NCBI GenBank assembly: GCA_024281375.1
Contig: JAJSAD010000003.1
Coordinates: 5,514-69,513 of the forward strand
Direction of reading: 5' to 3'
Length of the DNA stretch: 64,000 bases
Source: Alphaproteobacteria bacterium
GTDB lineage: Bacteria > Pseudomonadota > Alphaproteobacteria > Caedimonadales > UBA9215
Shown: positions 999 to 37,462 of the stretch, one piece after another
Layout of the letters: the number at the start of each line of letters is the position of its first letter
Position numbering within the stretch: the stretch's first letter is position 1
Notes under the pieces: generated by a model
The model's database searches: none
What the model was told of the DNA's origin: nothing
Seen by the model: the letters and a program-made list of their open reading frames with translations, nothing else
Program-made: the position numbers and the translations under genes

Positions 999-2021
999 TT
1001 AAACATCCACCAAAATATAAAGATCACCCCGCCTTGATTGACGCATTATGGTCATGCCCTTATCTTTCAAGCGGAATTTCTTACCCGATTGAATCCCTTC
1101 AGGAATCTTAACCTTTGTTTTGCCCCCGTCAATTGTGGGGACTTCAACCTCACCTCCCAAAATAGCCGCACTCATGGGAACGGTTACTTGAAAGCTAAGA
1201 TGCTCACCCGCACGCTGAAAAAGCTTGTGAGGATTAACAGTCACAAAGACATAAAGATCACCCGCGGGAGCACCAAACAAACCGGCTTCTCCTTCTCCCG
1301 TCAACCGAATTCTTGTGCCATCTTCCACACCCGCAGGGACGCTCACCTTAAGCTTACGAGGCTTCATAACACGGCCTTGTCCATGACACGGCACACAAGG
1401 ATCTTTAATGATTTGACCCGTTGCCTGACAGGCAGAACAAGGTCGCTCCATAGTAAAAAAGCCTTGCTGAGTGCGTTGCACCCCAGCGCCGTGACATTGA
1501 GGACAAGTGGTTGATCCGGAGCCCTTTTTGGCCCCGCTTCCCCCACAGTCTTTACAAGAAACACTAGACCTCATGGAAACGGTTTTTTGAACGCCCGCAA
1601 AAGCCTCTTCTAAAGAAAGGTCCATATCATAACGCAGATCATTCCCTTTTTGGGCTCTAGATTTCGAGGAGGCTCGACCACCCCCCATAAAATCACCAAA
1701 CATTTCTTCAAAGATATCTCCAAATCCAGCTCCACCAGAAGCCCCAGCAGCGGCCTTGTGAAAACCAGCACCCGCACCGCCAAAACCACCAGCCCCCTCA
1801 AAAGCCCCATGTCCAAATTGGTCATAGGCTGCTTTTTTCTGAGGATCTTTTAGGGTTTCATAGGCTTCATTAAGTTCCTTGAATTTTTTTTCAGCCCCCT
1901 CATTTCCCGGATTTTGATCGGGATGATATTTCATAGCAAGCTTACGATAAGCCTTTTTCATCTCGGCGTCAGACGCGCCCTTTTGAAGGCCCAGAACCTC
2001 ATAATAATCACGTTTTGACAT
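999..2021 (-). CDS. dnaJ: Chaperone DnaJ, ended prematurely by an in-frame TAA
   Basis: J-domain 'DYYEVLGL...YHPDQN', a G/F-rich linker and four CxxCxG zinc-finger motifs. The ORF stops at TAA (999-1001) exactly where DnaJ proteins have Glu in '..V(E)TPVNL..'. Confidence 0.93.
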
Positions 2022-2034
2022 GGAAAAATCCTAT

Positions 2035-2085
2035 AAAATAAAAACCCTTGGCGCCGTTAAGTTAAAAACCATCGGCACCAAGGGG
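2035..2085 (-). terminator. dnaK-dnaJ intergenic hairpin with U-tract (attenuator/terminator-like)
   Basis: Arms cccttggcgccg (2045-2056) and cggcaccaagggg (2073-2085) are complementary with one mismatch. On the minus strand the stem is followed by tttttatttt. Confidence 0.5.
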
Positions 2086-2098
2086 TATTTAAAAAAGC

Positions 2099-4072
2099 TT
2101 ATTTGTTCGCTTTCTTTTTACTATCTGTTGTCTCATCATCATCGTCCGTAGAAGAAGACTCATCAACATCTTCATAATCAGCATCCACAACTTCAGCGTC
2201 ATCGGCACCCCCGTCAGCCTTGTCAGCAGAAGCCTCATCGGTGTTCGCTGCTTCGGCGGCTTGAGCTTCTTTGTAAATGGCTTCTCCAAGTTTCATAGAA
2301 GCTTGCATCAGAGCATCAGATTTTGTTTTCACATCTTCAACGTCAACTTCTTCTTGCGCACAGGCTTCTTTTAGAGCTTCCATAGCGTCTTCAATGGCCT
2401 TTTTATCAGCCTCTTCGACCTTATCACCATGTTCAGAAAGTTGCTTTTCCGTCGCATTCACCATGGCTTCTGCTTGGTTTTTGGCTTCAATAACTTCCCG
2501 ACGCTTTTTATCTTCTTCGGCATGGGTTTCAGCATCTTTAACCATCTGATCAATTTCAGAATCATCGAGACCTCCAGAGGCCTGAATCCGAATTTGTTGT
2601 TCTTTACCCGTGGCTTTATCCTTTGCAGATACATGAACGATACCATTGGCATCAATATCAAAAGTGACTTCGATTTGAGGCACTCCGCGAGGAGCCGGTG
2701 GCAACCCAACAAGATCAAACTGACCGAGAATCTTATTATCCGCTGCCATTTCACGTTCTCCTTGAAACACACGAATAGTCACCGCAGATTGATTATCATC
2801 AGCCGTTGAGAATGTTTGGCTTTTCTTGGCAGGGATTGTTGTATTACGATCAATCAAGCGCGTAAACACACCGCCAAGGGTCTCAATACCCAATGACAAG
2901 GGTGTGACATCAAGAAGAAGAACATCTTTAACGTCTCCCTGCAAAATACCCCCTTGAATAGCTGCTCCCATGGCAACAACTTCATCAGGATTTACGCCCC
3001 GATTAGGCTCTTTACCAAAAATTTCTTGAACGGTTTCAATAATCTTAGGCATCCGGGTCATCCCCCCAACCAAGATCACTTCATCAATTTCACTGGCTTT
3101 AAGACCCGCATCTTTCAACGCATCCTTACAAGGCTTAACGGTTTTCTTGATAAGGTTTGCAATGATGCTTTCAAGTTTTGACCTAGACAACACAATATTC
3201 AAGTGCTTTGGACCCGACGCATCTGCCGTAATAAAAGGCAAGTTCACATCAGTTTGTTGGGCACTAGAGAGCTCGATCTTTGCCTTTTCTGCCGCTTCTT
3301 TCAAACGCTGTAAGGCCATATTATCTTGACGGAGATCAACCCCTTGTTCTTTTTTGAACTCATCAGCTAGGTAATCAATGATTTGGAGGTCAAAGTCTTC
3401 TCCGCCCAAAAATGTATCACCATTAGTAGATTTCACTTCAAAAACACCGTCTCCAATTTCCAAAATAGAAACGTCAAAAGTGCCGCCACCAAGGTCATAA
3501 ACCGCAATGGTCCCTGTCTTATTTTTATCAAGGCCATAGGCAAGAGCAGCCGCAGTTGGTTCGTTAATAATACGTAGAATTTCAAGGCCGACAATTTTAC
3601 CTGCATCTTTTGTGGCTTGACGCTGAGCATCATTAAAGTGAGCCGGCACCGTCACAACAGCTTGGGTCACAGTTGTGCCAAGATAGGCTTCCGCTGTCTC
3701 TTTCATTTTTTGAAGAATAAAAGCACTAATTTGGCTCGGACTATACTCTTTGCCATGGGATTCAACCCAGGCATCATTGTTCTTTGATTTAATAATTTTA
3801 TAGGGGACAAGGCCAATATCTTTTTGCGTTGCGGGGTCATCAAAGGTGCGACCAATCAAACGCTTAATACCAAAAAGTGTATTTTCAGGATTTGTAACGG
3901 CTTGGCGTTTTGCAGCCTGACCCACAAGCTTTTCGCCATCCTTTGTAAACGCAACGAACGACGGCGTTGTGCGCATTCCCTCTGCATTTTCAATAACTTT
4001 AGATTCTTTACCATCCATGACGGAAACACATGAGTTTGTGGTTCCCAAATCGATACCAATGACTTTAGACAT
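2099..4072 (-). CDS. dnaK: Chaperone DnaK (Hsp70)
   Basis: Start '[16 protein letters not shown]', then '[10 protein letters not shown]' and '[11 protein letters not shown]', with an acidic C-terminal tail. I chose the ATG at 4072 rather than the upstream ATG at 4102. Confidence 0.97.
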
Positions 4073-8764: not shown

Positions 8765-9352
8765 ATGTTTGATCTGTCAATACTTCAAGATGCCCTGGCT
8801 TTTTTAACGCAACAATCCCTAGGATTACAGTTGCTCTTTATCTTGCTGGCCTATGCCCTTGCCCCTGTTTGTGGGGTTCCCATCACCTTTATCACCTATG
8901 TCACGGCTTTTATATTTGGCTTGAAGGTGGGGGCTCCCCTTGCTTTTATAGGGTACTGCCTGAGTCTCACTCTCCTTTTTGAAGGGGCGGCTCTCTTTAA
9001 AAATAAAAGCCTTATCAAAATCCCGTTAAGCAAGCTGCAAAACCGTTTTCCTAAACTCTCCCAACGGCTCTCTTTTCCTCTGATTGTGGGGCTGGCTTCT
9101 ATTTTGCCATACCTTCCTCTTGTTGCACTTTTGGGTCTTACACAAGAAAAACGCTTCACAACTTACAGTGCCCTTCTTTTGGGAAGTATGCCCGCTTTTA
9201 TCATTGCTCTGCAAGCCGGTGCCCTTGGTAATGGCCTTGTTATGGGCATGAGCCAAAATCGCCTCATTTTTTCCTTTATAACTTTAGGCCTAGCCCTTAT
9301 GCTTCACTTGTGGATCTTTAAAAAAGCAAAGAAAAATATCAAAAAAACATGA
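8765..9352 (+). CDS. Polytopic membrane protein, possibly TVP38/TMEM64 (DedA-superfamily)-like
   Basis: 195 aa with five to six hydrophobic segments. Its stop overlaps the start of the next gene (ATGA). Family assignment is only by general resemblance. Confidence 0.6.
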   Translation: MFDLSILQDALAFLTQQSLGLQLLFILLAYALAPVCGVPITFITYVTAFIFGLKVGAPLAFIGYCLSLTLLFEGAALFKNKSLIKIPLSKLQNRFPKLSQRLSFPLIVGLASILPYLPLVALLGLTQEKRFTTYSALLLGSMPAFIIALQAGALGNGLVMGMSQNRLIFSFITLGLALMLHLWIFKKAKKNIKKT

Positions 9353-10095
9353 CGCCTTATCTTTATTTTATCCTTCCCGTTTATAATGAATCCAAAAGCA
9401 TTTATGACTTGCTAGAGGAAATCAACACCCTTGCTAATGAGTCTCCCTCTATTATTAAGGCTTTTCCCATCAATGATGCCAGTCAAGATGACAGCGCCTC
9501 TTGGATTGGGCGTGCTCAACAAGAATTCAAAAACATCAAAATAGAAACCTTGACTCACGAAACAAATCAAGGTCTCCAGGGAGCTTTAAACACAGGACTT
9601 TCCCATATAGCTCCCCTTATTAAGGATGAGGATTATGTGGTGACAATGGACGGGGATAATACGCATCCGCCTTATCTCACCAAAACTATGATCCAAAAAC
9701 ACAAAGAAGGCGCCGACCTTGTCTTGTCTTCCCGCTATCTTGAGCAATCCGTTGTAACGGGTGTGTCTTTTTTTAGATTGTTTTTAAGTTTTGGAGCTCG
9801 GATTTTGTATCAACTTTTCTGGCGCTTTAAAGGGGTTAAAGACTACACCTGTTTATTTCGCTCCCACAAAGGGAGCCTTTTAAAGGCCTTTTTCAAAGCT
9901 CAGGAAATGCCCTATCTCACCCAACAGGGCTTTGCGTGTACAACGGAATTCTTAGCAAAATTGATGATCCACAAACCCATTACTGTTGAAGTGCCTCTTA
10001 TCTTGAATTACGGTAAAAAAGTGGGGGTTTCTAATGTGCGTATCTTTCAAACAATTTTGACATCTCTTAAAATTATGTTGAGAAAAATTTCATGA
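9349..10095 (+). CDS. Family-2 glycosyltransferase, polyprenol-phosphate sugar synthase-like (Dpm1/ArnC/GtrB type)
   Basis: 'ILPVYNES', 'NDASQDDS' and 'MDGDNTHPP' match the GT2 DxD / D-G-D-x-x-H pattern of this subgroup. Confidence 0.8.
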   Translation: MTPYLYFILPVYNESKSIYDLLEEINTLANESPSIIKAFPINDASQDDSASWIGRAQQEFKNIKIETLTHETNQGLQGALNTGLSHIAPLIKDEDYVVTMDGDNTHPPYLTKTMIQKHKEGADLVLSSRYLEQSVVTGVSFFRLFLSFGARILYQLFWRFKGVKDYTCLFRSHKGSLLKAFFKAQEMPYLTQQGFACTTEFLAKLMIHKPITVEVPLILNYGKKVGVSNVRIFQTILTSLKIMLRKIS

Positions 10096-11209
10096 AAATT
10101 ATGACTATTTTTGGGACAAGACCCGAAGCTATTAAAGTTGCGCCTTTGATCAAAGCTTTTGAAGAAGAGCCAACTATCGATCACCTTACCTGTGTTACGG
10201 CACAACATCGGGATATGCTGGATCAAGTCCTTGAAACCTTTGATATTGTGCCGGACTATGATCTTGATCTCATGAAAGAAAATCAAGACTTAGCGTCTCT
10301 TTCCGCTCAAATCTTAACAAAAATCACAGCTATCTTAAAAGAAACACAGCCAGATTTTATCCTCGTACAAGGAGACACAACAACGGTTCTGATGGCGGCG
10401 CTTGCTGCTTTTTATCAACGGATAAAAGTAGCCCACCTTGAAGCAGGCCTTCGCACAAACGATATTCTTTCCCCTTGGCCCGAAGAAGCCAATAGGCGTC
10501 TTGTTTCGACAATAACCCATGTGCATTTTGCCCCAACGCTTTATGCAAAGGAAAAACTTTGGCGGAAAATATTAACTCTCAGCGTATTCTTGTGACAGGC
10601 AATAGTGTCATTGATGCCCTTTTCAAGGCTCGTGATAAAATTGCCTCATCACCAGAAACAGTAGAACATTTTCATAAAACTTATCCCTTCTTAGAAAATA
10701 CTTCTCAAAAACTTTTGGTAACTCTTCATCGTCGGGAAAGCCATGGTGAAAAAATCTCCGGCATTTGTGAGGCTCTTAAAGAGCTTTCCCAAGAAAAAAC
10801 TAACCTTGATATTATTTTTTCCGTCCACCCCAACCCGAATGTCAAAAAAGTTGTGAAAACTATTTTAGGGGGGATTTCCAATGTACATCTTATTGCGCCA
10901 CCCCCCTATCTTGATTTTGTTCACCTCATGACTCAAGCGACTCTTATTTTAACGGATTCTGGCGGTATTCAAGAAGAAGCACCCAGTCTTAATATTCCCG
11001 TATTGGTTGCCCGTGACAAAACAGAACGCCCTGAAGGTATCCAAGCTGGTAGCAGTATTTTGGTGGGGCGGGATGGACAGGATATTAAAAAAACAATTCT
11101 CGCTTTTTTAGAGAATAAATCCTTATATAATAAGCACGCCAATATCCCTAATCCTTTTGGAGACGGCACAACAGCACAGCGCGTTCTCGACTATTTTAAG
11201 AAGGTTTAA
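10092..11209 (+). pseudogene. wecB: UDP-N-acetylglucosamine 2-epimerase, split by a 1-nt deletion near 10558-10560
   Basis: ORF 10092..10595 carries 'IFGTRPEAIKVAPL', 'QHRDMLDQV' and 'HLEAGLRT'. ORF 10559..11209 continues with 'RILVTGNSVIDAL...TDSGGIQEEAPSL'. Joining needs one extra T in 'aaactttggcg' to read 'AKEKLLAENINSQRILVTGN'. Confidence 0.88.
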
Positions 11210-11216
11210 AAAGTCC

Positions 11217-13202
11217 ATGCCCTCTTCCCTTTTAAAGCGCACGAGTACATATCTCTTTTTTATGGGGCTCCTTTTTATCACCCTTGGCATGCCTCTGGAT
11301 ACTTGGTGGACAGTAAGTGTTTTTGTTTTAGCCCTTATGATTGGTGCCCTTGCTAAAAGCCACATCAATTTAAAGAAAGGGCTCCTCGCCCTTGTGGTTT
11401 GTGGGGTAACTTTTGGTCTCAAAACCCTCCTCCCCCTTTCTTACATCGAAGAAGGTGCGAATGTCTTTGTGCCAACGGAACCTATTTTTAAAGAACTTCC
11501 TCAATCTATTTATGATCATTCAAACAAGACATTGAAAAGACTCTATCCCCAACTCCATATTTCCCCAGACCATCAACTTTACGCTTTTTCTGTAGAGCAA
11601 TTTCATCAAAAAAGTAACCTTTCGCGCAAGCGTAAAACTGTGAATTTTACGTCTCTTCATGAGGCTCGCTTTGGTTTTATGAATAAACTCAATTATAATA
11701 CCTCCCCTAGTATGACACCCAAAAGAGAGCATCTCCCCTTTTTTGTGCGTTATGAGTTACCGCAAAATCTGGCCTATCATAAAGAAACGAAAATTTGCTG
11801 GAAAGGAGATATTTTTATAAAAAATGAGGCGGGAATTTATACAAAATGGTCTGCTCCCCAAACACAATGTGTCTCAACGGTTGATGAGAAAATCAAAACA
11901 TTTTATGGGGTCTCTGTTGATCCTGAAGTTCCTTTGAGTCTTTCCATCGAAGCGCCTTTTTCGCAACGCATCTGGATCATCATTGAAATGCTTTTAAGTC
12001 TTTTCGGTGTCCTTTTAATCACAAATATCTTTTATCCTTTTAAGGCTTTTATTCAACAGCTCAAAGAAGAAAAAGAGACCCGTTTTAAGGGGATGGTGCT
12101 CTTAAGCTCTATTGTCTTCTCCTTTATTGTTGCGTTCTTTTATCGTCCGCACTTTATGTCCGGTTTTCTCCTTTTTGAAGGCGGGAATGATGCCCTGTCT
12201 TATGCCTCTAAGGCCCGGGTTGTTCTTGAAGCGTTGTTCGTTGGGGATTGGCGCACAGCCTTGATGGGAGGAGAAGCTGTCTTTGATCTCATGCCGTTGC
12301 ATCGCTATACCTATGCGCTCAACCTCTTTTTATTCGGGGAAACACATTTTGGTTATTTTATGTTGATCCTTTTTGCCCCTTTAAGTATTTACTACCTCAC
12401 CAAACATCTATTTGAATCAGCGCGTTGGGCTTTTGCTCTTGCTATGATTTTTGCTGTGGTGCCCGCCTTTGAGACTTTTGGGTTTACTCAGCTTTATATG
12501 GTGCGTTTAGGATTGAGAGGCTTTGCAGAACCTTTAAGTTATATCGCGTTTTTTACGGCCATTGCCCTCGGCCTTCCCTACCTTAAACAGTCCTTTTTAA
12601 GTACGTCTCATACACGTCCTTTCCTTGTAGGGCTTTGTCTTGCCATTGCCGTTGGGGCACGTCCTAACGTTGCTCCTGGTGCGGGGATTTTCTTGTTGTG
12701 TGTCAGCTATGGCCTTTTTAGGCACTTAAAACTGAAATATTTCCTCCAACAGGTTGCCCTGCTTTGTTTTGGTTTTCTTCCTATTCTATTGATTCCTCTT
12801 CACAATTATATATTTGGAGATGTCTTTGTCCTCTTTACCGTTGCGGGACAAAAAGTCGAAAACCTTGCGGTTTCTCTACAGGATTATGGGGCCGTTTTGA
12901 AGGGCTTGATAGAGTCAAATATCCAGCAAGAGGCGTTGAAAAAAATCACCTCTCACCTATTAACAGAAATTAAGCCTACCCAACCGTGGTTCTATCTCGT
13001 CCTGCTCCTGAACTTTTATGGCCTTTTGTCAAAGAAACTTTCCACAATGGGAAAAACAATCGCCCTCACAGGTTTGTCACAACTTTCCATTGTGTTTTTC
13101 TACAACATTGGGGGGCGTTATGGATACCTTCACTGGTCCCTTCTTTTGTTAACAGCTTTGTTGGTGTTGAAAAATCTCTTTGCAAAGAAAGGTCCCGTTT
13201 AA
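11217..13202 (+). CDS. Large polytopic membrane protein, possible GT-C-type glycosyltransferase or polymerase (function uncertain)
   Basis: About 660 aa from the ATG at 11217. It has N-terminal TM segments, a soluble segment of about 150 aa, then ten or more TM segments. It sits last in the GT2/wecB cluster. Confidence 0.7.
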   Translation: MPSSLLKRTSTYLFFMGLLFITLGMPLDTWWTVSVFVLALMIGALAKSHINLKKGLLALVVCGVTFGLKTLLPLSYIEEGANVFVPTEPIFKELPQSIYDHSNKTLKRLYPQLHISPDHQLYAFSVEQFHQKSNLSRKRKTVNFTSLHEARFGFMNKLNYNTSPSMTPKREHLPFFVRYELPQNLAYHKETKICWKGDIFIKNEAGIYTKWSAPQTQCVSTVDEKIKTFYGVSVDPEVPLSLSIEAPFSQRIWIIIEMLLSLFGVLLITNIFYPFKAFIQQLKEEKETRFKGMVLLSSIVFSFIVAFFYRPHFMSGFLLFEGGNDALSYASKARVVLEALFVGDWRTALMGGEAVFDLMPLHRYTYALNLFLFGETHFGYFMLILFAPLSIYYLTKHLFESARWAFALAMIFAVVPAFETFGFTQLYMVRLGLRGFAEPLSYIAFFTAIALGLPYLKQSFLSTSHTRPFLVGLCLAIAVGARPNVAPGAGIFLLCVSYGLFRHLKLKYFLQQVALLCFGFLPILLIPLHNYIFGDVFVLFTVAGQKVENLAVSLQDYGAVLKGLIESNIQQEALKKITSHLLTEIKPTQPWFYLVLLLNFYGLLSKKLSTMGKTIALTGLSQLSIVFFYNIGGRYGYLHWSLLLLTALLVLKNLFAKKGPV

Positions 13203-14730: not shown

Positions 14731-16211
14731 GAGGCACTCCGAATTTCTTGTGTTTTTGTAGCAAAACCAGCGGCTGTTTCAAGGAACAATCCTGCATCCA
14801 ACATCTGTGTTTCCTGAAAAGCAGGGGCCGTTAATTGCATCCCTAGGGGGAGACCTTTGCTTGAAGAACCGGCGGGTATAGACATGCTGGGTAAGCCTGC
14901 AATGTTGGCTGTGACCGTTAGAATATCATTCATGTACATGGCAATGGGGTCTTTGGGTTCTTCCCCAATGGCAAAAGCGGCGGTGGGTGTTGTGGGCGTT
15001 AAAATTAAATCCACTTTCTTATAAGCCTCGGCAAAATCATTGCAAATGAGCCGGCGAACCTTAAGGGCTTTTACGAAATACGCATCATAATATCCCGCAG
15101 AAAGCACGTAAGTCCCTGTCATAATACGACGTTTTACTTCTTCTCCAAAGCCTTCGCCACGGGTTTTTTCATAGAGCTCGGTCAAATCTTTCGGATCATC
15201 AGCGCGGTGTCCATAACGCACCCCATCATAGCGCGCTAGGTTTGAAGAGGCTTCAGCAGGGGCTAAGATATAATAAGTCGGCAACGCATATTTCGAATGA
15301 GGTAAGGAGATATCAATAATCTCTGCCCCATTTTCCTTGAACCACGTGATGGTCTCTTGCCATAAAGCCTCGATTTCAGCATCAAGTCCTCCCACTTGAT
15401 ATTCCTTGGGAATGCCAATTTTAAGACCTTTAACATCACCTTTTAAAAGGTCCTTGTAAGACGGGATCTCAACGGTTGCAGAGGTCGCATCTTTGGGATC
15501 ATGACCCGCCATAGCTTCCAGCATAATGGCAGAATCACGCACCGTCTTTGTCATAGGGCCTGCTTGATCAAGGGAGGAGGCGAAGGCCATAATGCCCCAC
15601 CTGGAACACAAACCATAAGTTGGCTTCACCCCCACAAGACCACAGAAGGCAGCCGGTTGACGAATAGAACCCCCGGTATCGGTACCCGTTGCCGCCATCA
15701 CAGATCCAGCTGCAACGGCCGCCGCAGACCCACCGGAAGAGCCCCCAGGAACATAGTCTTTGTCCTCGCCTCTCACATGCCAAGGATTCTTAACAGGTCC
15801 GTAAGCACTATTGAGGTTTGCCGATCCCATGGCAAATTCATCCATGTTCATTTTGCCCAGCATCACAGCACCCCTATTCCATAAATTTTGGGTCACCGTG
15901 GATTCATAGGGAGGTTTGAAATCGTCTAAAATTTTAGAGGCTGCCGTTGTTTTAACACCCCTTGTGCAAAATAAATCTTTAATACCAATGGGAATACCTT
16001 CCATAATGCCTGCATTCCCTGCTGCAAGGCGGGCATCGGCATTTTCTGCACCTGACAAAGCAAGATCAGGAGTCTCCGTAATAAAAGCATTCAAGTCACG
16101 GGTTTCATCCAGACGCTTAAGATGCGCTTTGGTTAACTCAACGGCTGAAAACTCTTTTTGATCAAGGCCAGCTCTCGCTTCCGTGATGGTTAATGATGTT
16201 AAATCAGTCAT
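14727..16211 (-). CDS. gatA: Glu-tRNA amidotransferase subunit A
   Basis: Amidase signature '[14 protein letters not shown]'. The ATG at 16211 sits just downstream of the gatC stop. The gene ends in TGA. Confidence 0.96.
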
Positions 16212-16215
16212 TTTT

Positions 16216-16503
16216 TTACTCCACAACCTTTGGGACGGCAAACATATTTAAATCTTTTTCAGGGGCATTTGTTAAAACACAATTGGCCTGGTCGCCCTCA
16301 TTAATGATATCGTCCCGCTCTGGCATTTGTTTGATATGAATGCTGGTTAAAGGTTCTATACCATTGGTATTCACCTCAGAAAGTTGCTCGACCCAAGACA
16401 AAATCGTCGTCAACCCGTCTTGGTATTTTGCAATTTCATCATCCTTAATTTCAATGCGCGATAGGGTGCCGATTTTACGGACCGTTTTTTCATCAATGTG
16501 CAT
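16216..16503 (-). CDS. gatC: Glu-tRNA amidotransferase subunit C
   Basis: 95 aa with '[23 protein letters not shown]'. It sits upstream of gatA and gatB. Confidence 0.92.
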
Positions 16504-16565
16504 GGTCTCTCCATTTTATAAAACGTGAGCTTAGATTATAGGGTAAAGCCCAGACTGGCAAGGGC

Positions 16566-16669
16566 ATAGTCATTCCAAAAAGGTCCCAGACGTCGTCATT
16601 CGCTCCTAAACTATAAGGCATAGTCGTCGTCCCCTCTTTCCTAGACTAGAATCTTTTTGGAATGACTAT
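16566..16669. repeat. MITE-like element (family B) with perfect 17-bp terminal inverted repeats
   Basis: atagtcattccaaaaag (16566-16582) is the exact reverse complement of ctttttggaatgactat (16653-16669). The internal 'aaaaggtcccagacgtcgtcatt' recurs at about 50630-50656. Confidence 0.75.
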
Positions 16670-16694
16670 ATACCCATCCTCTTTCAAACTGTGG

Positions 16695-16796
16695 ACTTTC
16701 AAAACGGCGACACATCGCTGTCCTCACGTATGAAGTATACGCTCCGGGAGCTCTGGTCTGGTTTTAAAACCCACACGTCGAAATTGAATAAGTATA
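16695..16796 (-). repeat. Dispersed intergenic repeat family A, copy 2
   Basis: Its reverse complement aligns along nearly its whole length with 5163-5269, apart from an internal gap of about 12 nt. Confidence 0.8.
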
Positions 16797-16805
16797 GTGC
16801 TTTTC

Positions 16806-17090
16806 CTAGCAAATAAGTTCCCCCTCAGACCCTGGAAAACAGAGACGTGCTTTCACAATATCCTGAGGGGATAAGTCCATGGTCTTGGCAAAATCTATGA
16901 GGGTGGGTTCATCCATCATCATATAATCCAAAACACCGGCTAGAAATTCAGGACTTGAAATAGCGGTTTTTAACTCTTCTGGACCAACACCCGCATGGGC
17001 CAAAAATCCTCCTAAAGTCTCAAGGTTTTGGGCCATATACTCAACGGCTTTAACAGCAATAAGTTCGGCGTAGTCTTGGGCAAGTTTCAT
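16806..17090 (-). CDS. DUF3572-family protein
   Basis: 94 aa. The pattern 'AVKAVEYMA...LGGFLAHAGVGPEELK...FLAGVLDYMMMDE..LIDFA' resembles the alphaproteobacterial DUF3572 family. Confidence 0.7.
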   Translation of the reverse strand: MKLAQDYAELIAVKAVEYMAQNLETLGGFLAHAGVGPEELKTAISSPEFLAGVLDYMMMDEPTLIDFAKTMDLSPQDIVKARLCFPGSEGELIC

Positions 17091-18199
17091 ACTTTAATAC
17101 CTTTATCCTTAAGGTGGGTTTTTAAGACCCTTAGACCTTCTTTAAACTCAGAGCTTTGAAGCATCAAGGTGGCTTTATTCATGGTAGAAACGGCCAATGC
17201 AAAGAGGCTTTTGGGAGAACCAAGTTGAACATCGCCTTGACGAATTGCCAACTGGAATTTCTTATACTCCATAACATCACCCAGTTTTGGAAGGGTTTTC
17301 TGATTCGATAAAAAGGCAAGGCGGAATCCGTGAAACGCATAACAAAAGGGGCGGATCACATGGAACTTAGCCATTTCAAGCGCTGTTGGCTTGCGCCCAT
17401 AATAGGCCTGCATAAATTGGGGCAAAAGACTTTCATCATAGACATGGAAATTCGCAAACATACAAAGGTCAATGGGATAATAATCATTGGAGGCTGTCTC
17501 CCAATCAATCAACCAGGCTTTCTTTTTATCATAAAGAACATTATGGGGGCTAATATCATGATGAACGGGACGAATATCATCAAAAAAATGAGCAAAAATA
17601 GCTTCAACTTCCGTGGCTCTTTCTGCGTAAAGGGTCGCGTCTTCCTCTTTCACAAAAGAAGAGATCAGTCCATTATTTACCAAGCGTTGTTCATCTTGAC
17701 GCAAGATATCAAAGAAGAGCCTATCCCGGTTTAAAGGCTTAGAGTCATGAAAAGCGCGTATTTTATGGGCAACCATTTTGTGAAAAGGGGCTGCACGACG
17801 GTTAATACCATTATTATTATCAATATAAGCAAGCACCAGCGTTTTGTTTTTTAAATGACTATAATAAAGCTTGGGCCCGACACCCACATCCCCTGTAATC
17901 TGGGCTGCTGTTATTTCGGTTTCAATGTCTTCTTGGGGGGAATCTTTCATAATTTTTACAATAAAATTACCTTGACGGGTTGTCACTTTAAAAAGGTCTG
18001 CCTTTGAAAATCCCCCGGCAATCATTTTGATATCATTTGCCTGTGTAAGCGTTATGCTAAGTCCCTCTTGAAAGGATTTATGGATAGTACCCCGGTGTCT
18101 TTCAAGGGCTTGTTTTTGTTTTTCAACGGGACCTAAGGTTGCTGCAAAAGCGTTGTGTGTAAAGAAAAAGGCTAAAAAAAGGCCAGCAAGATATTTCAT
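17087..18199 (-). CDS. Choline/ethanolamine-kinase-like (APH-fold) kinase with a predicted signal peptide
   Basis: 'HHDISPHNVLYD' (HxDxxxxN) and 'LIDWETASNDYYPIDL' (ChoK/LicA-type). From the ATG at 18199 the N-terminus 'MKYLAGLFLAFFFTHNAFA/A' looks like a Sec signal. Confidence 0.75.
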   Translation of the reverse strand: MKYLAGLFLAFFFTHNAFAATLGPVEKQKQALERHRGTIHKSFQEGLSITLTQANDIKMIAGGFSKADLFKVTTRQGNFIVKIMKDSPQEDIETEITAAQITGDVGVGPKLYYSHLKNKTLVLAYIDNNNGINRRAAPFHKMVAHKIRAFHDSKPLNRDRLFFDILRQDEQRLVNNGLISSFVKEEDATLYAERATEVEAIFAHFFDDIRPVHHDISPHNVLYDKKKAWLIDWETASNDYYPIDLCMFANFHVYDESLLPQFMQAYYGRKPTALEMAKFHVIRPFCYAFHGFRLAFLSNQKTLPKLGDVMEYKKFQLAIRQGDVQLGSPKSLFALAVSTMNKATLMLQSSEFKEGLRVLKTHLKDKGIKV

Positions 18200-18231
18200 A
18201 TTTTTAACGTTCCTGTTTATTAGAGTCGTTC

Positions 18232-18987
18232 CTATAGTTTTAGTCCTGAATGTATGGCTACAATACCCTGATTCATATCGCGCCATGTTACCTGTTGAAA
18301 TCCAGCTTTCGTAACCCTCTCTGCCAAGGTCTGCTGATCCGGGAAACGGGCAATGCTCTCCACCAAATATTGATAGGCTTCTTTGTCGTTGGCAATGAGC
18401 GATCCCATCTTTGGAATTATTTGAAAAGAATAAAAGTCATACAATTTTTCTAAAGAAGCAGAGGTTACTTTGGAAAATTCGAGGCAGAAAAATTGCCCCC
18501 CAGGTTTTAAAACACGGTAAGCTTCTTTGAGTGCTTTTTCCATTTTCGTTACATTGCGCAAGCCAAAAGAAATAGTGTAGGCATCAAAAGTGTTATCTGC
18601 GAAAGGAATGCTTGCCGCATCACAACAGGTCCAAGAGATATTTTCCAAAATACCTTGATTAATGGCTTTGCGTTTTCCTTCCGCCAGCATCTTGTCATTC
18701 ATGTCGCAAACGTTGACCTGTGAGGCGGGCGTGAATTTTTGAGACGCCTCTAAAAAACGAAAGGCAATATCGCCGGTCCCGCCAGCCATATCCAACAAGT
18801 GCATCCCAGAGCGCGGACGGAGCATTTGAATCAGTTCATTTTTCCAATAGCGATGCACGCCTAAGCTCATGACATCATTCATAACATCATAGCTTTTTGC
18901 GACTCGCCTAAAAATATCCGTTACACGATCGGTTTTTTCGTCGGGAGAGACATCCTTAAATCCAAAACTTGTCTTAGAATCTATCAT
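18232..18987 (-). CDS. ubiE: Ubiquinone/menaquinone C-methyltransferase
   Basis: 'YDVMNDVMSLGVHRYWK' and 'LDMAGGTGDIAF'. Confidence 0.94.
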   Translation of the reverse strand: MIDSKTSFGFKDVSPDEKTDRVTDIFRRVAKSYDVMNDVMSLGVHRYWKNELIQMLRPRSGMHLLDMAGGTGDIAFRFLEASQKFTPASQVNVCDMNDKMLAEGKRKAINQGILENISWTCCDAASIPFADNTFDAYTISFGLRNVTKMEKALKEAYRVLKPGGQFFCLEFSKVTSASLEKLYDFYSFQIIPKMGSLIANDKEAYQYLVESIARFPDQQTLAERVTKAGFQQVTWRDMNQGIVAIHSGLKL

Positions 18988-19091
18988 AGAAAGACACTTT
19001 TTTTATTTCATTCCCTCTAAAATACGCCACATTTTTAAAGACATCTAGGGGGAAAAATGTTAAAGACTATATTTTGGAAAGGAATGGACAT

Positions 19092-19745
19092 ATGATATTT
19101 TTTAAAGCCTTTATTTTAACAATTTGCCTCGTTAATAGTACCGCATATTCTATCCCCCTCAAAAACATTATTCTGAAAGAGGGGATGCGTATTGCTGTTT
19201 ATCCGGGGAGTTTTGACCCTTTTCACAAAGCCCACATGGCTATTATCGATGAGGCTTTAAAACTGGATTCTGTGGATTATGTCATTGTCTATGCCGAACA
19301 AGAATTTAAACCCAGTAAGCCCAATCGAACGTACTACCCTATCCGTCAAAAAATGTTAGAGAGTGTTTATCACGATCATCCTCAAGTTCTTTTGTCAACG
19401 GAGCGTCTCGTCGATATTATTAAAATGCTGCGGGATCATAAGGTCACTGTTATTGCTCTTGTGGGAGCCGATAATATCAGCCCTGAAACAATTATGTTCG
19501 TCGCTGATAAATGGATCGTGAACCTAAGGCCAGGGTTTCGAGAGGATAAAAATATCCTTGAGATGACAGATATTATGGGACAACCCGTCACGAAGATCAT
19601 GGCAAAAGATGGTGAGGTCAGTTCGACAAAAATTCGCCAGTTATTAATCCAATCTTTAACTGAGGCCTCAAAAGAAGCTCCGAGAACTCTTCCTGTAGCA
19701 GGGCCTGTCGAAAAAATTATTCACGAAAAAGGCCTTTATCACTAA
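19092..19745 (+). CDS. NadD-like HIGH-family nucleotidyltransferase with a signal-peptide-like N-terminus
   Basis: 'YPGSFDPFHKAHMAII' (HxxH motif) and 'VSSTKIRQLL' (ISSTxIR motif). The N-terminus is 'MIFFKAFILTICLVNSTAYS'. The ORF track starts at TTG 19074; I preferred ATG 19092. Confidence 0.7.
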   Translation: MIFFKAFILTICLVNSTAYSIPLKNIILKEGMRIAVYPGSFDPFHKAHMAIIDEALKLDSVDYVIVYAEQEFKPSKPNRTYYPIRQKMLESVYHDHPQVLLSTERLVDIIKMLRDHKVTVIALVGADNISPETIMFVADKWIVNLRPGFREDKNILEMTDIMGQPVTKIMAKDGEVSSTKIRQLLIQSLTEASKEAPRTLPVAGPVEKIIHEKGLYH

Positions 19746-20983
19746 AGGGCCTTTTCGACTTCTTTTAAGGCCTCTTTAAGAGCCCCGACAGCAAAATCTA
19801 ACTGTTCTTTTTCAATAATAAGAGGTGGGGCTAAGCGCACAATGGTGTCGTGGGTTTCTTTAGAGAGAACACCGCGGGCCATGAGGGCTTCACAGACAGC
19901 ACGGGCGGGCGCTTTTTGAGGATTGATTTCAACAGCAACCCACAAACCAGACCCTCGTATATCGGTAATGAGATCACTGTCGATCTTTTTGAGTTCGCCT
20001 TGGAGGTATGCCCCTAGGTCTGCTGATCGTTGGGCGTAGTTATCACGCTCGAGGATTTCAAGGGCTTTCAAACCAACTTTAGCAGAAAGGGGGTTCCCTC
20101 CAAAAGTTGAGCCATGGGATCCAGGACGTAAGGTCTCTAGAACTTCCCGGGAGGAGACAAAGGCTGAAATAGGTAATAACCCGCCACCCAAGGCTTTGCC
20201 CAAAATCAAGCCATCGGGGATAATGCCTTCATGCTGAAAGGCAAAGAGTTTCCCCGTGCGCCCCAGCCCCGTTTGAATTTCATCCAGAATCATCAACACG
20301 TTATGCTTATCACACAAAGTACGCACTTTTTTAAGATAGCCTTTTGGGGGAATAATAATACCGGCTTCCCCCTGCATAGGTTCTACTAAGAATGCACAGG
20401 TATTTGGTGTTATGGCTGCTTCAAGAGCCTCAATATCCCCAAAGGGGACTTCTTTGAACCCCGGGGTAAAAGGCCCAAAATGTTTTTTATAGTCCGCATC
20501 AGATGAGAAACTCACGATGGTTGTGGTACGGCCATGGAAATTGTTTGCTGCGACAATGATTTCAGCTTTATTATCTGGAATGCCTTTAATTTCGTAGCCC
20601 CAGCGGCGTGCGGCCTTAAGAGCTGTCTCAACGGCTTCAGCCCCTGTATTCATGGGCACGACCATTTCAAGACCAGATAACTCACAGATTTTCTGCAAGA
20701 AAGGTGCAAGGGTTGAGCTATAAAAAGCACGGGACGCAATGCACAATGTTTGGGCTTGTTCATGCAGTACTTGAACCAATTCAGGATGACAATGACCATG
20801 GCTCACGGCAGAATAGGCCGACATCATATCGAGGTATTTACGCCCCTCACTATCATAGAGCCACACCCCTTCGCCTCGCTCTAAAACCGCTGGAATCGGC
20901 AGGTAGTTAGGGGCGCAAACTTGGGATTCAAATTTGATATAGTCCTGAGAGGTTATTTCTATCTTTTTAGCCATGGCTGTCAT
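19742..20983 (-). CDS. rocD: Ornithine aminotransferase (class-III aminotransferase)
   Basis: 'APNYLPIPAVLERGEGVWLYDSEGRKYLDMMSAYSAVSHGHCHP' and 'DEIQTGLGRTGK' are close to the OAT pattern. Confidence 0.88.
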   Translation of the reverse strand: MTAMAKKIEITSQDYIKFESQVCAPNYLPIPAVLERGEGVWLYDSEGRKYLDMMSAYSAVSHGHCHPELVQVLHEQAQTLCIASRAFYSSTLAPFLQKICELSGLEMVVPMNTGAEAVETALKAARRWGYEIKGIPDNKAEIIVAANNFHGRTTTIVSFSSDADYKKHFGPFTPGFKEVPFGDIEALEAAITPNTCAFLVEPMQGEAGIIIPPKGYLKKVRTLCDKHNVLMILDEIQTGLGRTGKLFAFQHEGIIPDGLILGKALGGGLLPISAFVSSREVLETLRPGSHGSTFGGNPLSAKVGLKALEILERDNYAQRSADLGAYLQGELKKIDSDLITDIRGSGLWVAVEINPQKAPARAVCEALMARGVLSKETHDTIVRLAPPLIIEKEQLDFAVGALKEALKEVEKAL

Positions 20984-20992
20984 TACCGACTC

Positions 20993-21916
20993 TTATCTTT
21001 TAGGAAGGATTTCTTTGAGAATATCCTCAACAAGGAGGGCCGTCAAATCATCTCGATCCCGGTTGGGATTAAATTCTGTTATTTCCAACGCTGAGAATTG
21101 AGGATGTTCTCGCACATAATGAAGGTGGGGAGTGGTTTCTGTTGGAAGCATCCCATCAACCTCAGGACTGCCAACACCCGGCGCGAATTTCGGATCAAAC
21201 GCATCCAGATCAATACTCACCCCAAAGGCTTTTGTGTGACGCGTTACATGCTCAAGGGCTTCTTGAATCACAGTCTCAAAGCCTCGCTCATTAACCTCAT
21301 CGCAATAGAAAATCTTGACGTTTAGCTTTTGGAGCAACGCCTCTTCTTCGGGCTCAAAACTTCGAATACCAATTAAGACGAGATCTTGAGGGCGAATCTT
21401 GGGACCTTGTTGACAAAGATTAGCGAGCTGTGGTTCACCATGTCCTAAAAGAGACGCAACAGGCATACCATGGTAAGCATTGGACGGAGAGGTTTCCGGG
21501 ATATGGGAGTCCATATGGGCATCCACCCAAATGAGGCCAAAATTCTTTTGGGCATTAAGGGCTTTAATGGCGCCTGAAAACGTTCCCACAGCCATGACAT
21601 GATCTCCTCCAAGGGCACAAGGAAACTCTCCTTTTTTCATTAAATCGTCAATAGAGTCGGCGAGTTTTTCAAGGTGAGGCACGATAAAGGGGAGGGTTTC
21701 AACACCAGGAGGTAAATCCAACTCACTTGCTTTTTCATCAGGATGAATCATGGCGGTCCAATAACTAGACACATGGGAACTATGCAATACATCCGTTAGG
21801 TTGCGTTCTTGTAAAACCATAGGGCCTGCCTCTGTTTCATGAACTTGCGCCCCCCATCCAGAGGCTGATCCCACAAGTCCCGTTCGTCGCTTATCGTCTT
21901 TTTTCATAGCTTGCAT
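20993..21916 (-). CDS. Arginase-family ureohydrolase (probable arginase)
   Basis: Mn-binding motifs 'GGDHVMAVG', 'VDAHMDSH' and 'SIDLDAFDP'. Adjacent to rocD. Confidence 0.8.
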   Translation of the reverse strand: MQAMKKDDKRRTGLVGSASGWGAQVHETEAGPMVLQERNLTDVLHSSHVSSYWTAMIHPDEKASELDLPPGVETLPFIVPHLEKLADSIDDLMKKGEFPCALGGDHVMAVGTFSGAIKALNAQKNFGLIWVDAHMDSHIPETSPSNAYHGMPVASLLGHGEPQLANLCQQGPKIRPQDLVLIGIRSFEPEEEALLQKLNVKIFYCDEVNERGFETVIQEALEHVTRHTKAFGVSIDLDAFDPKFAPGVGSPEVDGMLPTETTPHLHYVREHPQFSALEITEFNPNRDRDDLTALLVEDILKEILPKR

Positions 21917-22190
21917 TAGACCTCTCTCCTCTTTTTTGATGGTCTTTAAAATTAATCCCTAAACGCTTAATATTCTCTTAAGGAAAGCGCGTCTTTTTTT
22001 ATTTTTTTATGTTTTTGATCTTTATCAAATCTTTGCAGAGTGAACACTTAGGGGGATTTTATCAAATTTTAATAAAAATGATATAAAAAATTAATTCTTT
22101 GTTAAGGAATAGGCTGAAAAATCGAAATGCTCATTAAAGAAAATGAGCTCAATCTGAAAATATTCAAGACTTAAACAAAGGAAATGAACG

Positions 22191-23039
22191 ATGACATATA
22201 CAACAAAATTTTTATCCACCTCTGCTTTGGCTTTGCTCCTCGGTATGGGCCTCTCTTATGCCTCTGATATTACTGCTGAAAAAGAAGGTGATGAAGATGT
22301 TACAGTGACACTCCCCGTTGTGGTCATTGAAGAAGCGAGTGATGAAGGTGGCGCAAGTTCTGCAGCTTCCGCAGTTTCAAAAGATGAGTTTGCTAAAGCT
22401 GTTAAAGCGTCCCATGTAAACCACAAATGGTGGGATGTTGATGGGGATGGCGATCTTGACCTTGATGATGTTAAAGCCTTTTTCAAAAAGCGTCTAAAAC
22501 ATTTAGATTTTGATGGAGATGGTGACTTTGATGTTGATGATATTATTGCAGGGGCTAAATCCCTTTGGAAAAATGTTAAAGGTATTTTTGATGCTGATAA
22601 TAATGGAACCGTAGAATTTGATGAAATTCTTATTGGAACTAATAATGCTATTGGTATTATTAATGATCTTGTTGATCGTATTTCGAATATTTCAGGTACT
22701 ATTAAGGGCAGTCCTTATTTTGACTCAATTCCTGATAGCGTTAAAGGTCCTCTCACAAATCTTCTTGCGCTTGTTGATGAAGCTGCAGGTAAAACAAAAG
22801 GAGGCCTTAATATCGGGGGAAAATATGTGAGTAAAATTGAAGATGCCCTTAAGGCTTTAAATAGCCAAATAAAAACTCTAACCAGTGGTGACCTTTCAGC
22901 AACCGACTTTATTAAAGCCAGAAAAGATATCTTTGCGTATCTTGAGATGGTTAAAGGCTGGTATAATACCGGTGATAACGCAAGTTTGATTACCAAAATC
23001 GAAAGACGTCTTGCAAAACTTAAAACACCAACAGTCTAA
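22191..23039 (+). CDS. Secreted protein with three EF-hand-type calcium-binding loops
   Basis: Signal peptide 'ALALLLGMGLSYA/SD'. Loops are 'DVDGDGDLDLDD', 'DFDGDGDFDVDD' and 'DADNNGTVEFDE' (DxDxDGxxxxxD/E). The C-terminal half has no motif I recognise. Confidence 0.75.
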   Translation: MTYTTKFLSTSALALLLGMGLSYASDITAEKEGDEDVTVTLPVVVIEEASDEGGASSAASAVSKDEFAKAVKASHVNHKWWDVDGDGDLDLDDVKAFFKKRLKHLDFDGDGDFDVDDIIAGAKSLWKNVKGIFDADNNGTVEFDEILIGTNNAIGIINDLVDRISNISGTIKGSPYFDSIPDSVKGPLTNLLALVDEAAGKTKGGLNIGGKYVSKIEDALKALNSQIKTLTSGDLSATDFIKARKDIFAYLEMVKGWYNTGDNASLITKIERRLAKLKTPTV

Positions 23040-26624: not shown

Positions 26625-27110
26625 ATGAAATACAGTATCACTATTCTTATTATGTTTTTATTTGTTTTTTCAACATCTTATGCCAACCATGGCGAAATTA
26701 TTAAGGATACAAGGTCCAATGAAGAATGGGCTAGGATTTTAACCACTGATCAATACGAAATTTTACGCAACGATGGCACAGAACCGTCTTATAGCAGCCC
26801 CCTGAATGATGAAAAGCGACAGGGTGTTTTTGCGTGTGCAGCTTGCGGGCTTGCCCTTTTTGACTCCAACACAAAATATGACAGCAAGACAGGTTGGCCT
26901 AGCTTTTGGCAACCTATCAAAGGACATATTGAGACAAAAACAGACTGGAAACTTTTTTACCCCCGCACGGAATATCACTGTGCCAGGTGTGGCAGTCACC
27001 AGGGTCATATCTTTGAGGATGGGCCCCCTGAACATGGTGGAAAACGTTATTGTAATAATGGGCTTGCCTTAAACTTTATTCCAGAACATGAAAAAAAGAA
27101 AGAAAGATAA
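26625..27110 (+). CDS. msrB: Methionine-R-sulfoxide reductase MsrB with signal peptide
   Basis: 'CAACGLALFDS..KYDSKTGWPSF' and 'CARCGSHQGHIFEDGP'. N-terminus 'ITILIMFLFVFSTSYA'. Confidence 0.9.
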   Translation: MKYSITILIMFLFVFSTSYANHGEIIKDTRSNEEWARILTTDQYEILRNDGTEPSYSSPLNDEKRQGVFACAACGLALFDSNTKYDSKTGWPSFWQPIKGHIETKTDWKLFYPRTEYHCARCGSHQGHIFEDGPPEHGGKRYCNNGLALNFIPEHEKKKER

Positions 27111-27715
27111 TGCGTCATTTTTTATCGATTTTTCTCATAAGTTTTTTACTTTTTTTAGGAACACAATCTATGTCTCAAGCAACATCAACGCCACAAAAAC
27201 AGGAAGTAGCAATTCTAGCAGGAGGTTGTTTTTGGTGTTTGGAACATCCTTTTGATTCTTTAAAGGGCGTTGAGTCGGTCATTGTAGGATACACAGGAGG
27301 GCACACAAAATCTCCTAATTATGAGGAAGTTTCCGCTGGAAAATCGGGGCATTATGAAGCCGTCAAAATTGTTTATGACCCTACAGTTATTTCTTTTCAA
27401 GAAATTTTAGACGTGCTTTGGGTTAATATTGATCCCTTTGATGCAACAGGACAATTCTGTGATAAAGGCGATCAGTACCGCGCCGCTATTTTCACCCTCA
27501 ATGAAGATCAAGAGAAAGTAGCCCAGATTTCTAAGGCTGAAAAAGAGAAAAAACTCGACCAAGAAATTGTTACAGAAATCCTTCCTGCAGGTCCCTTTTT
27601 TAAAGCAGAAGAATACCATCAACATTATTATCAAAAGAACCCTGTTCGTTATAAGTTCTATCGCTATAACTGCGGGCGAGATCAACGCTTAAAAAAAGTC
27701 TGGGGCGGAAAATAA
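27110..27715 (+). CDS. msrA: Methionine-S-sulfoxide reductase MsrA with signal peptide
   Basis: 'LAGGCFWCLEHPF' and 'GYTGG'. N-terminus 'FLSIFLISFLLFLGTQSMSQA'. Confidence 0.9.
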   Translation: MRHFLSIFLISFLLFLGTQSMSQATSTPQKQEVAILAGGCFWCLEHPFDSLKGVESVIVGYTGGHTKSPNYEEVSAGKSGHYEAVKIVYDPTVISFQEILDVLWVNIDPFDATGQFCDKGDQYRAAIFTLNEDQEKVAQISKAEKEKKLDQEIVTEILPAGPFFKAEEYHQHYYQKNPVRYKFYRYNCGRDQRLKKVWGGK

Positions 27716-36215: not shown

Positions 36216-36521
36216 ATGATTATATTAAACAAGATACTTATTGTATTATTTTTTTCTATCAGTTTAGCAAAAACATCTCTTGTGAATGAAGGGGAAACCT
36301 ACGAAATTAGAGATGCTTTCGTTATGAATTATATGTGTTACATTCAAGTTCAGAGAAAAAATCTTCAAGAGAAAGGTCTTTTACTAAGAGTGCCTTGCAA
36401 AACATATCTAAAAAGATATTTTTCTAAGTCTCTGCGACAGCAAGCTTTATGCAATTCTCTTTATAGTGCTTTGCTTAAACGCACCATCCTTAGGTTGCTG
36501 GGCAATAGACAAGAAGATTAA
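36216..36521 (+). CDS. Possible small secreted protein (weak call)
   Basis: An ORF with signal-like 'MIILNKILIVLFFSISLAKT'. It is AT-rich, has no homology I recognise, and is convergent with tadC. Confidence 0.3.
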   Translation: MIILNKILIVLFFSISLAKTSLVNEGETYEIRDAFVMNYMCYIQVQRKNLQEKGLLLRVPCKTYLKRYFSKSLRQQALCNSLYSALLKRTILRLLGNRQED

Positions 36522-37453: not shown

Positions 37454-37462
37454 ATATACCTC

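Follow-up and report, generated by a model that had tools for sequence, protein, structure and literature searches.

The stretch of DNA described here, 64,000 nucleotides of contig JAJSAD010000003.1 (the window), comes from an alphaproteobacterium of the lineage UBA9215 and encodes, on the two sides of ubiE, a kinase and a nucleotidyltransferase that both start with a hydrophobic segment conserved in their homologues. The bacterial periplasm is not a compartment in which enzymes that need ATP would be looked for. On balance, we favour the view that these are two unrelated enzymes, with separate histories and no shared pathway, both targeted to the envelope of a Holosporales-like alphaproteobacterium. 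A preliminary description of the window, whose quoted peptides, motifs, coordinates and domain assignments all agree with the table of open reading frames (ORFs) and with Pfam, had remarked, with joint action put forward as speculation only, that the two enzymes and a LicD-family protein formally make up the three steps of a CDP-choline/phosphocholine route; we do not retain such a route. If the view favoured here is correct, a conserved clade of choline kinase-like enzymes with export signals, next to lipoprotein and F-box relatives, would point to a kinase chemistry in the envelope of intracellular bacteria fuelled by host nucleotides or to a family of secreted enzymes that modify the host, and labels such as 'phosphotransferase' and 'NadD-like' could hide non-cytosolic proteins.

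The kinase, its signal and its operon

The features of the kinase and of its operon are the following.

17087 to 18199, minus strand: small-molecule kinase of the ChoK/APH fold, 370 amino acids, starting MKYLAG, assigned from Pfam, homologues and Foldseek
18143 to 18199, minus strand: predicted Sec signal peptide of the kinase, residues 1-19, MKYLAGLFLAFFFTHNAFA, with A following the predicted cut; n-h-c anatomy across homologues
17540 to 17563, minus strand: catalytic loop HHDISPHN (Brenner-type HxDxxxxN), residues 213-220 of the kinase, invariant in 12/12 family members
18232 to 18987, minus strand: ubiE (demethylmenaquinone/ubiquinol C-methyltransferase), 32 nucleotides upstream of the kinase; Ubie_methyltran 2.5e-87, NCBIfam UbiE 3.2e-104
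16806 to 17090, minus strand: DUF3572 protein (PF12096, 5.8e-24), its start overlapping the kinase stop by 4 nucleotides

Close homologues of the kinase and of the nucleotidyltransferase were sought among 5.8 billion proteins. For the kinase, a tight family of twelve proteins was found at 51-73% identity, in which the 73% member is a fragment of 250 amino acids and the full-length homologues (n=11) fall between 51 and 68%. The N-terminal signal, with its n-, h- and c-regions, is present in all eleven full-length homologues. In ten of them the n-region opens with one to three Lys/Arg and has a charge of +1 to +3; the hydrophobic core measures about 10-14 residues; in the alignment column that matches the predicted cut, position -1 is Ala, Ser or Gly, all of them small, in 9/11; and the first 15 residues of the mature protein are neutral or acidic (net charge -4 to +1). 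Judged heuristically over the 11 homologues, the kinase thus conforms to the pattern of a Sec signal for type I signal peptidase, namely a positive n-region, a core of 7-15 residues and small residues at -3 and -1. Pairwise identity within the family is 19% in the signal region vs 63% in the domain, and this would be the usual pattern for a signal peptide that is selected for its physical character and not for its sequence.

The position of the start codon is equally constrained. The sole internal methionine of the window kinase, Met58, is Leu or Gln in 4/11 homologues, and the kinase start lies 14-32 nucleotides past the ubiE stop across loci, so that the start codon cannot be moved downstream. 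In the opposite direction, a longer reading of 399 amino acids from 18286 runs into ubiE and is fitted by no homologue. We consider it likely, from these features of the sequence, that the kinase is exported; it would be made with a cleavable Sec signal peptide, and the mature enzyme would work in the periplasm or beyond.

The enzyme behind the signal is of the ChoK/APH fold and has an intact catalytic core, in agreement with its earlier designation as ChoK/LicA-type. It matches the Pfam families APH (PF01636, 2.8e-12, 47.4 bits vs a threshold of 23.2) and Choline_kinase (PF01633, 6.6e-10, 39.2 bits vs 29), as do all twelve members of the family. H213, H214, D215, N220, D232 and E234 are invariant across the family alignment, as is the metal-binding motif LIDWE (IDxE), and the Gly-rich loop AGGFSKADL is invariant or nearly so; D215, N220 and D232 are kept in 98-100% of the 142 wider-family members described below. 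The best Foldseek matches of the AlphaFold model, which has a confidence (pLDDT) of 70, are the ChoK-family protein of M. loti (3dxq), LicA (4r7b) and human ChoK. With this model and that of the nucleotidyltransferase (pLDDT 53) both weak, such fold matches confirm the family only, in accord with Pfam and NCBIfam for the kinase. LicA of S. pneumoniae (4r7b), 3dxq and human ChoK-alpha, all of the choline/ethanolamine kinase group, share with the kinase the Pfam matches above threshold, the HxDxxxxN loop and the IDxE motif, but sequence identity to the solved ChoK/LicA structures is only 14-17% and the ChoK substrate motif is kept only in part. Moreover, the kinase carries a conserved signal peptide of the cleavable type, which the cytosolic LicA/ChoK enzymes do not, and lies in a ubiE operon, whereas LicA belongs to the lic operon. 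An assignment as a choline kinase proper (LicA/ChoK) does not hold: no NCBIfam equivalog model is reached, and the context in all loci is that of ubiE, DUF3572 and gatCAB. Small alcohols or amines and headgroups of the envelope would be the most likely substrates, with choline as one candidate only.

Two cysteines, C246 and C286 (about 17342-17464 of the window), are invariant in the Holosporales kinase clade but not among the wider relatives. A disulfide could link them, as would suit a protein of the periplasm.

Gene order was compared in six distinct relatives (loci L001, L002/L004, L003, L005, L011 and L012). The order ubiE, kinase, DUF3572 is kept in all of them and the outer flanks vary; gatC comes next in L005, L011 and L012, is unreadable in one relative because of a contig end, and is absent in the most distant. 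From gene order, the kinase and ubiE are predicted to share an operon throughout this clade, and its co-transcription with ubiE and DUF3572 would be a fixed feature of the clade. Promoter and terminator scans gave only a background level, and Rfam nothing credible in 15000-22500. DUF3572 itself lies, in three distant alphaproteobacterial loci, beside divK-pleD-like response-regulator genes with no ubi genes; dinB is downstream of it in one of the distant loci and near it in a second. A metagenome scan with DUF3572 returned only two close relatives, and nothing relevant emerged from a search of the literature on DUF3572, on kinases of the periplasm, on signal peptide-bearing kinases of Holosporales or on choline kinases that are secreted.

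A conserved block, TACGCCACATTTTTAAAGACAT, stands upstream of ubiE in three lineages (19020-19057 in the window, 55-90 in locus L006 and 4084-4125 in L012). It probably holds the promoter or leader of ubiE; in L006 it is taken as coding, at the beginning of an extended N-terminus of ubiE.

Hydrophobic N-termini were also screened over the whole window, taking as positive a best 10-residue Kyte-Doolittle window of at least 2.2 in the N-terminal region. By this measure 26 of the 67 ORFs are positive, and none of DnaK, DnaJ, GatABC, UbiE, RocD, arginase, SdhAB, SucCD, Mdh, LepA and PheT is flagged. Since the cytosolic housekeeping proteins remain unflagged, with one exception considered below, the GC content of 42% does not explain the hydrophobic N-termini.

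A wider kinase family was collected with a profile search over 1.84 billion representatives, which gave 1445 matches, and 142 full-length members were analysed. A signal-like N-terminus is found in 51 of these, and a lipoprotein box in seven. The median number of residues before the Gly loop is 57 in the kinases bearing a signal peptide vs 34 in the rest, which amounts to an add-on of about 23 residues. The seven nearest outgroup kinases all have a hydrophobic, signal-like start; five pass the 2.2 cut-off and two reach 1.79 and 1.91. More distant relatives have unrelated neighbours and no ubi context, and the cluster names of the kinase relatives are uninformative, the only name being 'phosphotransferase [Chitinophaga sp.]'. 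Furthermore, in 8 of 10 long relatives F-box domains are fused to tandem kinase domains; these proteins (P0025-P0051, P0133, P0029), of about 800-1100 amino acids, consist of two or three units of F-box plus kinase. At the one locus looked up (L016), the F-box kinase (1233-3689) adjoins fabD in a dense bacterial context. The F-box kinases look like host-directed proteins of intracellular bacteria, and such fusions in a bacterial gene context imply that some relatives of the kinase would be built to act in eukaryotic cells.

The nucleotidyltransferase and the rocD/ubiE junction

On the other side of ubiE, the features are the following.

19092 to 19745, plus strand: NadD/PPAT-like nucleotidyltransferase (the transferase), 217 amino acids, starting MIFFKAF; CTP_transf_like 3.6e-12
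19092 to 19151, plus strand: hydrophobic N-terminus of the transferase, MIFFKAFILTICLVNSTAYS, signal peptide or N-terminal anchor, kept in the homologue
19185 to 19187, plus strand: internal Met32 of the transferase (MRIAVYPGSFDPFHKAH; MRIAVYPGSFDP), at the canonical NadD/PPAT start position and conserved in the homologue
19224 to 19235, plus strand: HxxH motif FHKAH of the transferase, in which the Gly of HxGH is replaced by Ala
19620 to 19637, plus strand: SSTKIR motif (VSSTKIR) of the transferase
19742 to 20983, minus strand: rocD-like ornithine aminotransferase, convergent with the transferase with a 4-nucleotide overlap; Aminotran_3 in the orthologous loci L006 and L012
19045 to 19057, plus strand: relic of a second rocD 3' end (CTAGGGGGAAAAA on the plus strand), edge of the insertion, a diverged copy kept in the window

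Only one close homologue of the transferase was found (P0014, 69% identity). Its N-terminus, MILLKNILAAIFLMLSAAPA, differs from that of the window protein at 44 of the 93 nucleotides of the first 31 codons, free of indels, and the ATG and the hydrophobicity are kept. The replacements are hydrophobic for hydrophobic and often involve two or three base changes; in a neutral simulation the open frame, the start codon and the hydrophobicity were retained together in 1.3% of trials. Such retention implies that the segment is translated. The other two frames of the segment are full of stops, and AAGGAA precedes Met1. As inferred from this single pair of sequences, selection maintains the N-terminus as a hydrophobic peptide. 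The hydrophobic N-termini reported for the kinase and for the transferase in the preliminary description thus withstand the examination of start codons, the former because Met58 is unconserved and the latter because of the outcome of the neutral model.

The placement of the protein in the nucleotidyltransferase family also stands. CTP_transf_like, HxxH and SSTKIR are all present, and the motifs typical of NadD/NMNAT (HxGH, ISSTxxR) are recognisable, with H45, H48, S177, S178 and R182 invariant in an alignment of three sequences. A closer assignment is not reached, since the protein scores 37 bits with NCBIfam NadD vs a cut-off of 150, and 35.5 bits with CoaD (TIGR01510) vs 103.3, the latter over the N-terminal half only. 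The core of about 187 residues compares with a size of about 160 amino acids for PPAT/CoaD. A sequence search of the PDB returned PPAT at 4e-4 and NadD at 6e-3; Foldseek on the low-confidence model ranked NadD first and then PPAT, with mammalian CCT (3hl4) at rank 46 and a probability of 0.21, and no CCT or LicC model was matched in Pfam and NCBIfam. From its motifs and scores, the transferase resembles NadD or PPAT and would not be a phosphocholine cytidylyltransferase. With NadD of B. subtilis (1kaq) and PPAT/CoaD (1vlh) it shares the CTP_transf_like fold, HxxH and SSTxxR, and the NadD model aligns over its full length; it differs from both in falling below every equivalog cut-off, in its extra hydrophobic N-terminus of 30 residues, in being inserted between rocD and ubiE and in having one known close homologue.

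The history of the gene can be read from its flanks. In L012, a sister lineage that keeps the pair ubiE and kinase, rocD (TCCCTCTAG; ending in AAATCCCTCTAG) is joined directly to the ubiE leader ATGTCTTTAAAAA and the transferase is absent, whereas in L006 the transferase gene interrupts this junction and is flanked on each side by TTCCCTCTAG. The rocD of L012 is 86% identical to that of the window and 90% to that of L006. The intact junction of L012, together with the duplicated rocD 3' end, indicates that the transferase entered an ancestral rocD/ubiE junction with a duplication of about 9-10 nucleotides, and the comparison of loci marks the gene as a predicted insertion of about 0.7 kb; no terminal inverted repeats were found at the insertion. 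In L012 the transferase either was never present or was removed when the repeats recombined. As a lineage-specific insertion, the transferase is an accessory gene that is not tied to the kinase; it would be a divergent adenylyltransferase of the NadD/PPAT type and not the ancestral housekeeping NadD of this locus. GC and third-position GC (GC3) of the kinase, the transferase and LicD equal the window mean, so that these genes are without a compositional sign of recent transfer.

At the far end of the gene, a terminator-like hairpin of 11 pairs covers the overlapping stops of the convergent transferase and rocD (19727-19755), and a 16-nucleotide inverted repeat links the 3' region of the transferase (19662-19677) to that of rocD (19759-19774).

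Export, tethering and other readings

If the segments do direct both enzymes to the envelope, a source of ATP has to be considered. The nearest related loci, two in a genome scan with the kinase, are from 'Holosporales bacterium UBA9215' and from an 'uncultured Alphaproteobacteria bacterium', and the window encodes a tad pilus cluster as well as a member of DUF3572, a family of alphaproteobacteria. Members of the order Holosporales live as obligate symbionts inside eukaryotic cells, and some of them, several in number, are believed to import host ATP via tlc translocases (PMC9992710). From this affiliation we infer an intracellular lifestyle also for the present organism. The need of the kinase for ATP would be no paradox if the bacterium lives in the host cytoplasm, as host ATP (about 0.5 kDa) could reach the periplasm through outer-membrane porins and would form the same periplasmic pool on which the translocase-bearing relatives are believed to draw.

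Several points weigh against the export of both enzymes. The periplasm is normally without ATP, and no tlc gene lies within the 64-kb window. The AlphaFold model of the kinase is moderate and that of the transferase poor. In the transferase, the charges flanking the hydrophobic segment are balanced and the uncharged stretch spans 18-23 residues, so that an anchor with the enzyme facing inwards is possible. Met32 stands where NadD and PPAT proteins begin and is preceded by GAGG, although at a poor spacing of about 2 nucleotides; from its position, a second, cytosolic isoform starting there is possible. Finally, the sole recognisable cytosolic housekeeping protein flagged in the hydrophobicity screen is the following.

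46999 to 47880, minus strand: biotin-protein ligase (TIGR00121, 115 bits vs a cut-off of 83)

Its N-terminus is signal-like (MMMKNFILGALLLCWYPSFAWG followed by SG, or SGAG, after the predicted cut) with AAGGA upstream, and its domain starts at about residue 37-54, with no Met before it and a GTG at codon 49 as a possible start. A housekeeping BirA should be cytosolic, and hence either a signal-like N-terminus is not in every case a sign of export in this genome or the phenomenon extends beyond the two enzymes. The ligase is, in its own right, a third ATP-dependent 'cytosolic' enzyme of the window with a signal-like N-terminus.

The biotin ligase, which must act on cytosolic AccB, and the balanced flanks of the transferase both speak for reading the hydrophobic segments as uncleaved membrane tethers, with the catalytic domains facing the ATP-bearing cytoplasm. 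This would remove the ATP problem and, if true, would reduce the finding to a modest, lineage-specific curiosity. We rate it as unlikely for the two enzymes taken together, because the kinase has its positive charges before the core and acidic or neutral residues after it, a core of about 10-14 residues only and a small -1 residue in 9/11 homologues, and because some of its relatives carry lipoprotein boxes. The export raised in the preliminary description, with an inward-facing anchor as the alternative, is therefore upheld in part: the kinase fits a cleaved Sec signal in charge, hydrophobic core, -1 residue and early mature region, and relatives with lipoboxes exist, but the transferase has balanced flanks and an 18-23 residue uncharged stretch that would suit an inward anchor. 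The Sec pattern is less clear in the transferase than in the kinase, and the hydrophobic N-terminus, once translated, would either export the transferase or tether it to the inner membrane, two outcomes that we regard as close to even.

It could also be supposed that the N-termini are annotation artefacts, that is, that translation starts downstream and the hydrophobic codons are an AT-rich leader. The segment of the window transferase is indeed T-rich, and Met32 of the transferase, like Met42 or Met57 of LicD, would give canonical family N-termini. The kinase, instead, lacks an internal start that is conserved, its frame stays open and hydrophobic over 11 lineages, and very few nucleotides separate it from ubiE; the transferase has retained its ATG, its frame and its hydrophobicity through 47% nucleotide divergence, against 1.3% of neutral trials, the segment of P0014 is not T-rich and the other frames are full of stops; AAGGAA and AGGAAGG stand upstream of Met1 of the transferase and of LicD, respectively. 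An artefact is thus extremely improbable.

The third enzyme of the proposed phosphocholine route is a LicD homologue, as had been described.

9 to 842, minus strand: LicD-family protein, 277 amino acids (PF04991, 1.4e-13)
774 to 842, minus strand: predicted N-terminal hydrophobic segment of LicD, MLKKILKLSILGLAVFSGWYVGT

The match to PF04991 (51.9 bits vs 22.6) covers model positions 3-56 only, the first quarter of the model. The domain is above threshold and the DxD motif is present, DDDVD aligning with DYDVD of FKRP; the DxD region matches human FKRP at 4.7e-5, and the NCBIfam model of the Mf1 cholinephosphotransferase gives 59.7 bits vs a cut-off of 225. Met1 has a strong AGGAAGG before it, but the N-terminus typical of LicD would result from a start at Met42 or Met57. 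Eukaryotic LicD/FKRP members are type II-anchored transferases that use CDP-activated donors. The window protein shares the LicD domain and the DxD region with FKRP (6kaj), and its predicted N-in/C-out anchor resembles the eukaryotic members, whose topology is general knowledge; it departs from the family in that its alignment to the Pfam model stops after the first quarter and that its start codon is ambiguous.

In the route suggested from these three proteins, the kinase would make phosphocholine, the transferase CDP-choline, and LicD would transfer phosphocholine onto a target on the surface or in the host. The three enzyme classes do occur together in one 64-kb window, each with a hydrophobic N-terminus, and the nearest solved structures of the kinase are choline kinases, LicA included. 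However, the transferase scores with NadD and PPAT, its SSTKIR is not a CCT-type motif and CCT ranks far down among its structural matches. Bacterial LicC belongs to a different family, NTP_transferase, which remains unmatched. In addition, the inserted transferase is missing from L012, which retains the kinase; no LicD or transferase homologue is found at any kinase locus; and the partners of the kinase are ubiE and DUF3572, not lic genes. As already recognised in the preliminary description, the genes do not form one operon: they occupy three separate transcription units, with LicD 16 kb from the kinase, behind dnaJ and dnaK. A common choline route is therefore very improbable.

The position of the kinase directly downstream of ubiE in six distinct loci calls to mind UbiB, which has a protein-kinase-like fold and usually neighbours ubiE, as in the ubiE-ubiJ-ubiB operon of E. 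coli. The kinase could then be a non-orthologous stand-in for UbiB, membrane-anchored and working with UbiE, and in fact no UbiB catalytic motif (HxDxHxGN) occurs in the six-frame translation of the window. The kinase has the kinase-like fold and the ubiE-adjacent position in common with UbiB/COQ8 (the ABC1 atypical kinases), but differs from them in its N-terminus and topology, and none of the 12 kinase-family proteins matches ABC1 (PF03109) at E<=10. Furthermore, its predicted topology puts the kinase domain outside the cytoplasm, the usual neighbours of DUF3572 are unrelated to quinones, and the distant relatives of the kinase are without ubi context, all of which makes such a substitution quite improbable. 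A habitual position of DUF3572 after ubiB was considered separately and rejected on account of its divK/pleD-like neighbours in the three distant loci.

At the other extreme, a more ambitious extension of envelope targeting appears doubtful. According to it, the kinase, the adenylyltransferase, the LicD-type transferase and perhaps the biotin ligase would be exported to the periplasm or released into the host, would use host ATP, NTPs or CDP-activated donors that come in through porins by diffusion, and would act on the bacterial surface or on metabolites of the host ahead of their uptake; the kinases with signal peptides, lipoprotein boxes and F-boxes would in that case form a class, so far unrecognised, of small-molecule kinases that are extracytoplasmic or directed at the host.

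Other genes of the window

Some further genes have signal-like N-termini. MsrB (SelR, 26625-27110, plus strand) and MsrA (PMSR, 27110-27715, plus strand) adjoin and both start in this way, which suggests a pair of periplasmic methionine sulfoxide reductases. A protein of 282 amino acids (22191-23039, plus strand) combines a signal-like N-terminus with EF-hand motifs, a weak lanmodulin-like match (2.7e-6) and a low GC3 of 0.24.

Two coding sequences are interrupted. In dnaJ, an in-frame TAA at 999-1001 (minus strand) stands where Glu (GAA) is expected (LVDV, stop, TPVNLTSKQKELIKEF) and removes the last 46 residues; this could be pseudogenisation, a sequencing error or read-through. A gene resembling UDP-GlcNAc 2-epimerase (wecB-type, by eye) is split into the overlapping ORFs 10092-10595 and 10559-11209 (plus strand), probably by a frameshift. 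Around these wecB-type ORFs lies a small glycan cluster, with a family-2 glycosyltransferase (9349-10095) and a protein of 681 amino acids that falls in no family (11157-13202).

Finally, a complete-looking tad/flp pilus cluster, recognised by eye from the order and sizes of the ORFs, occupies 36518-44569 (minus strand) and comprises, on the same basis, two TadB/C-like proteins, a CpaF-like ATPase, CpaE-, CpaD-, CpaC- and CpaB-like proteins and a prepilin peptidase.

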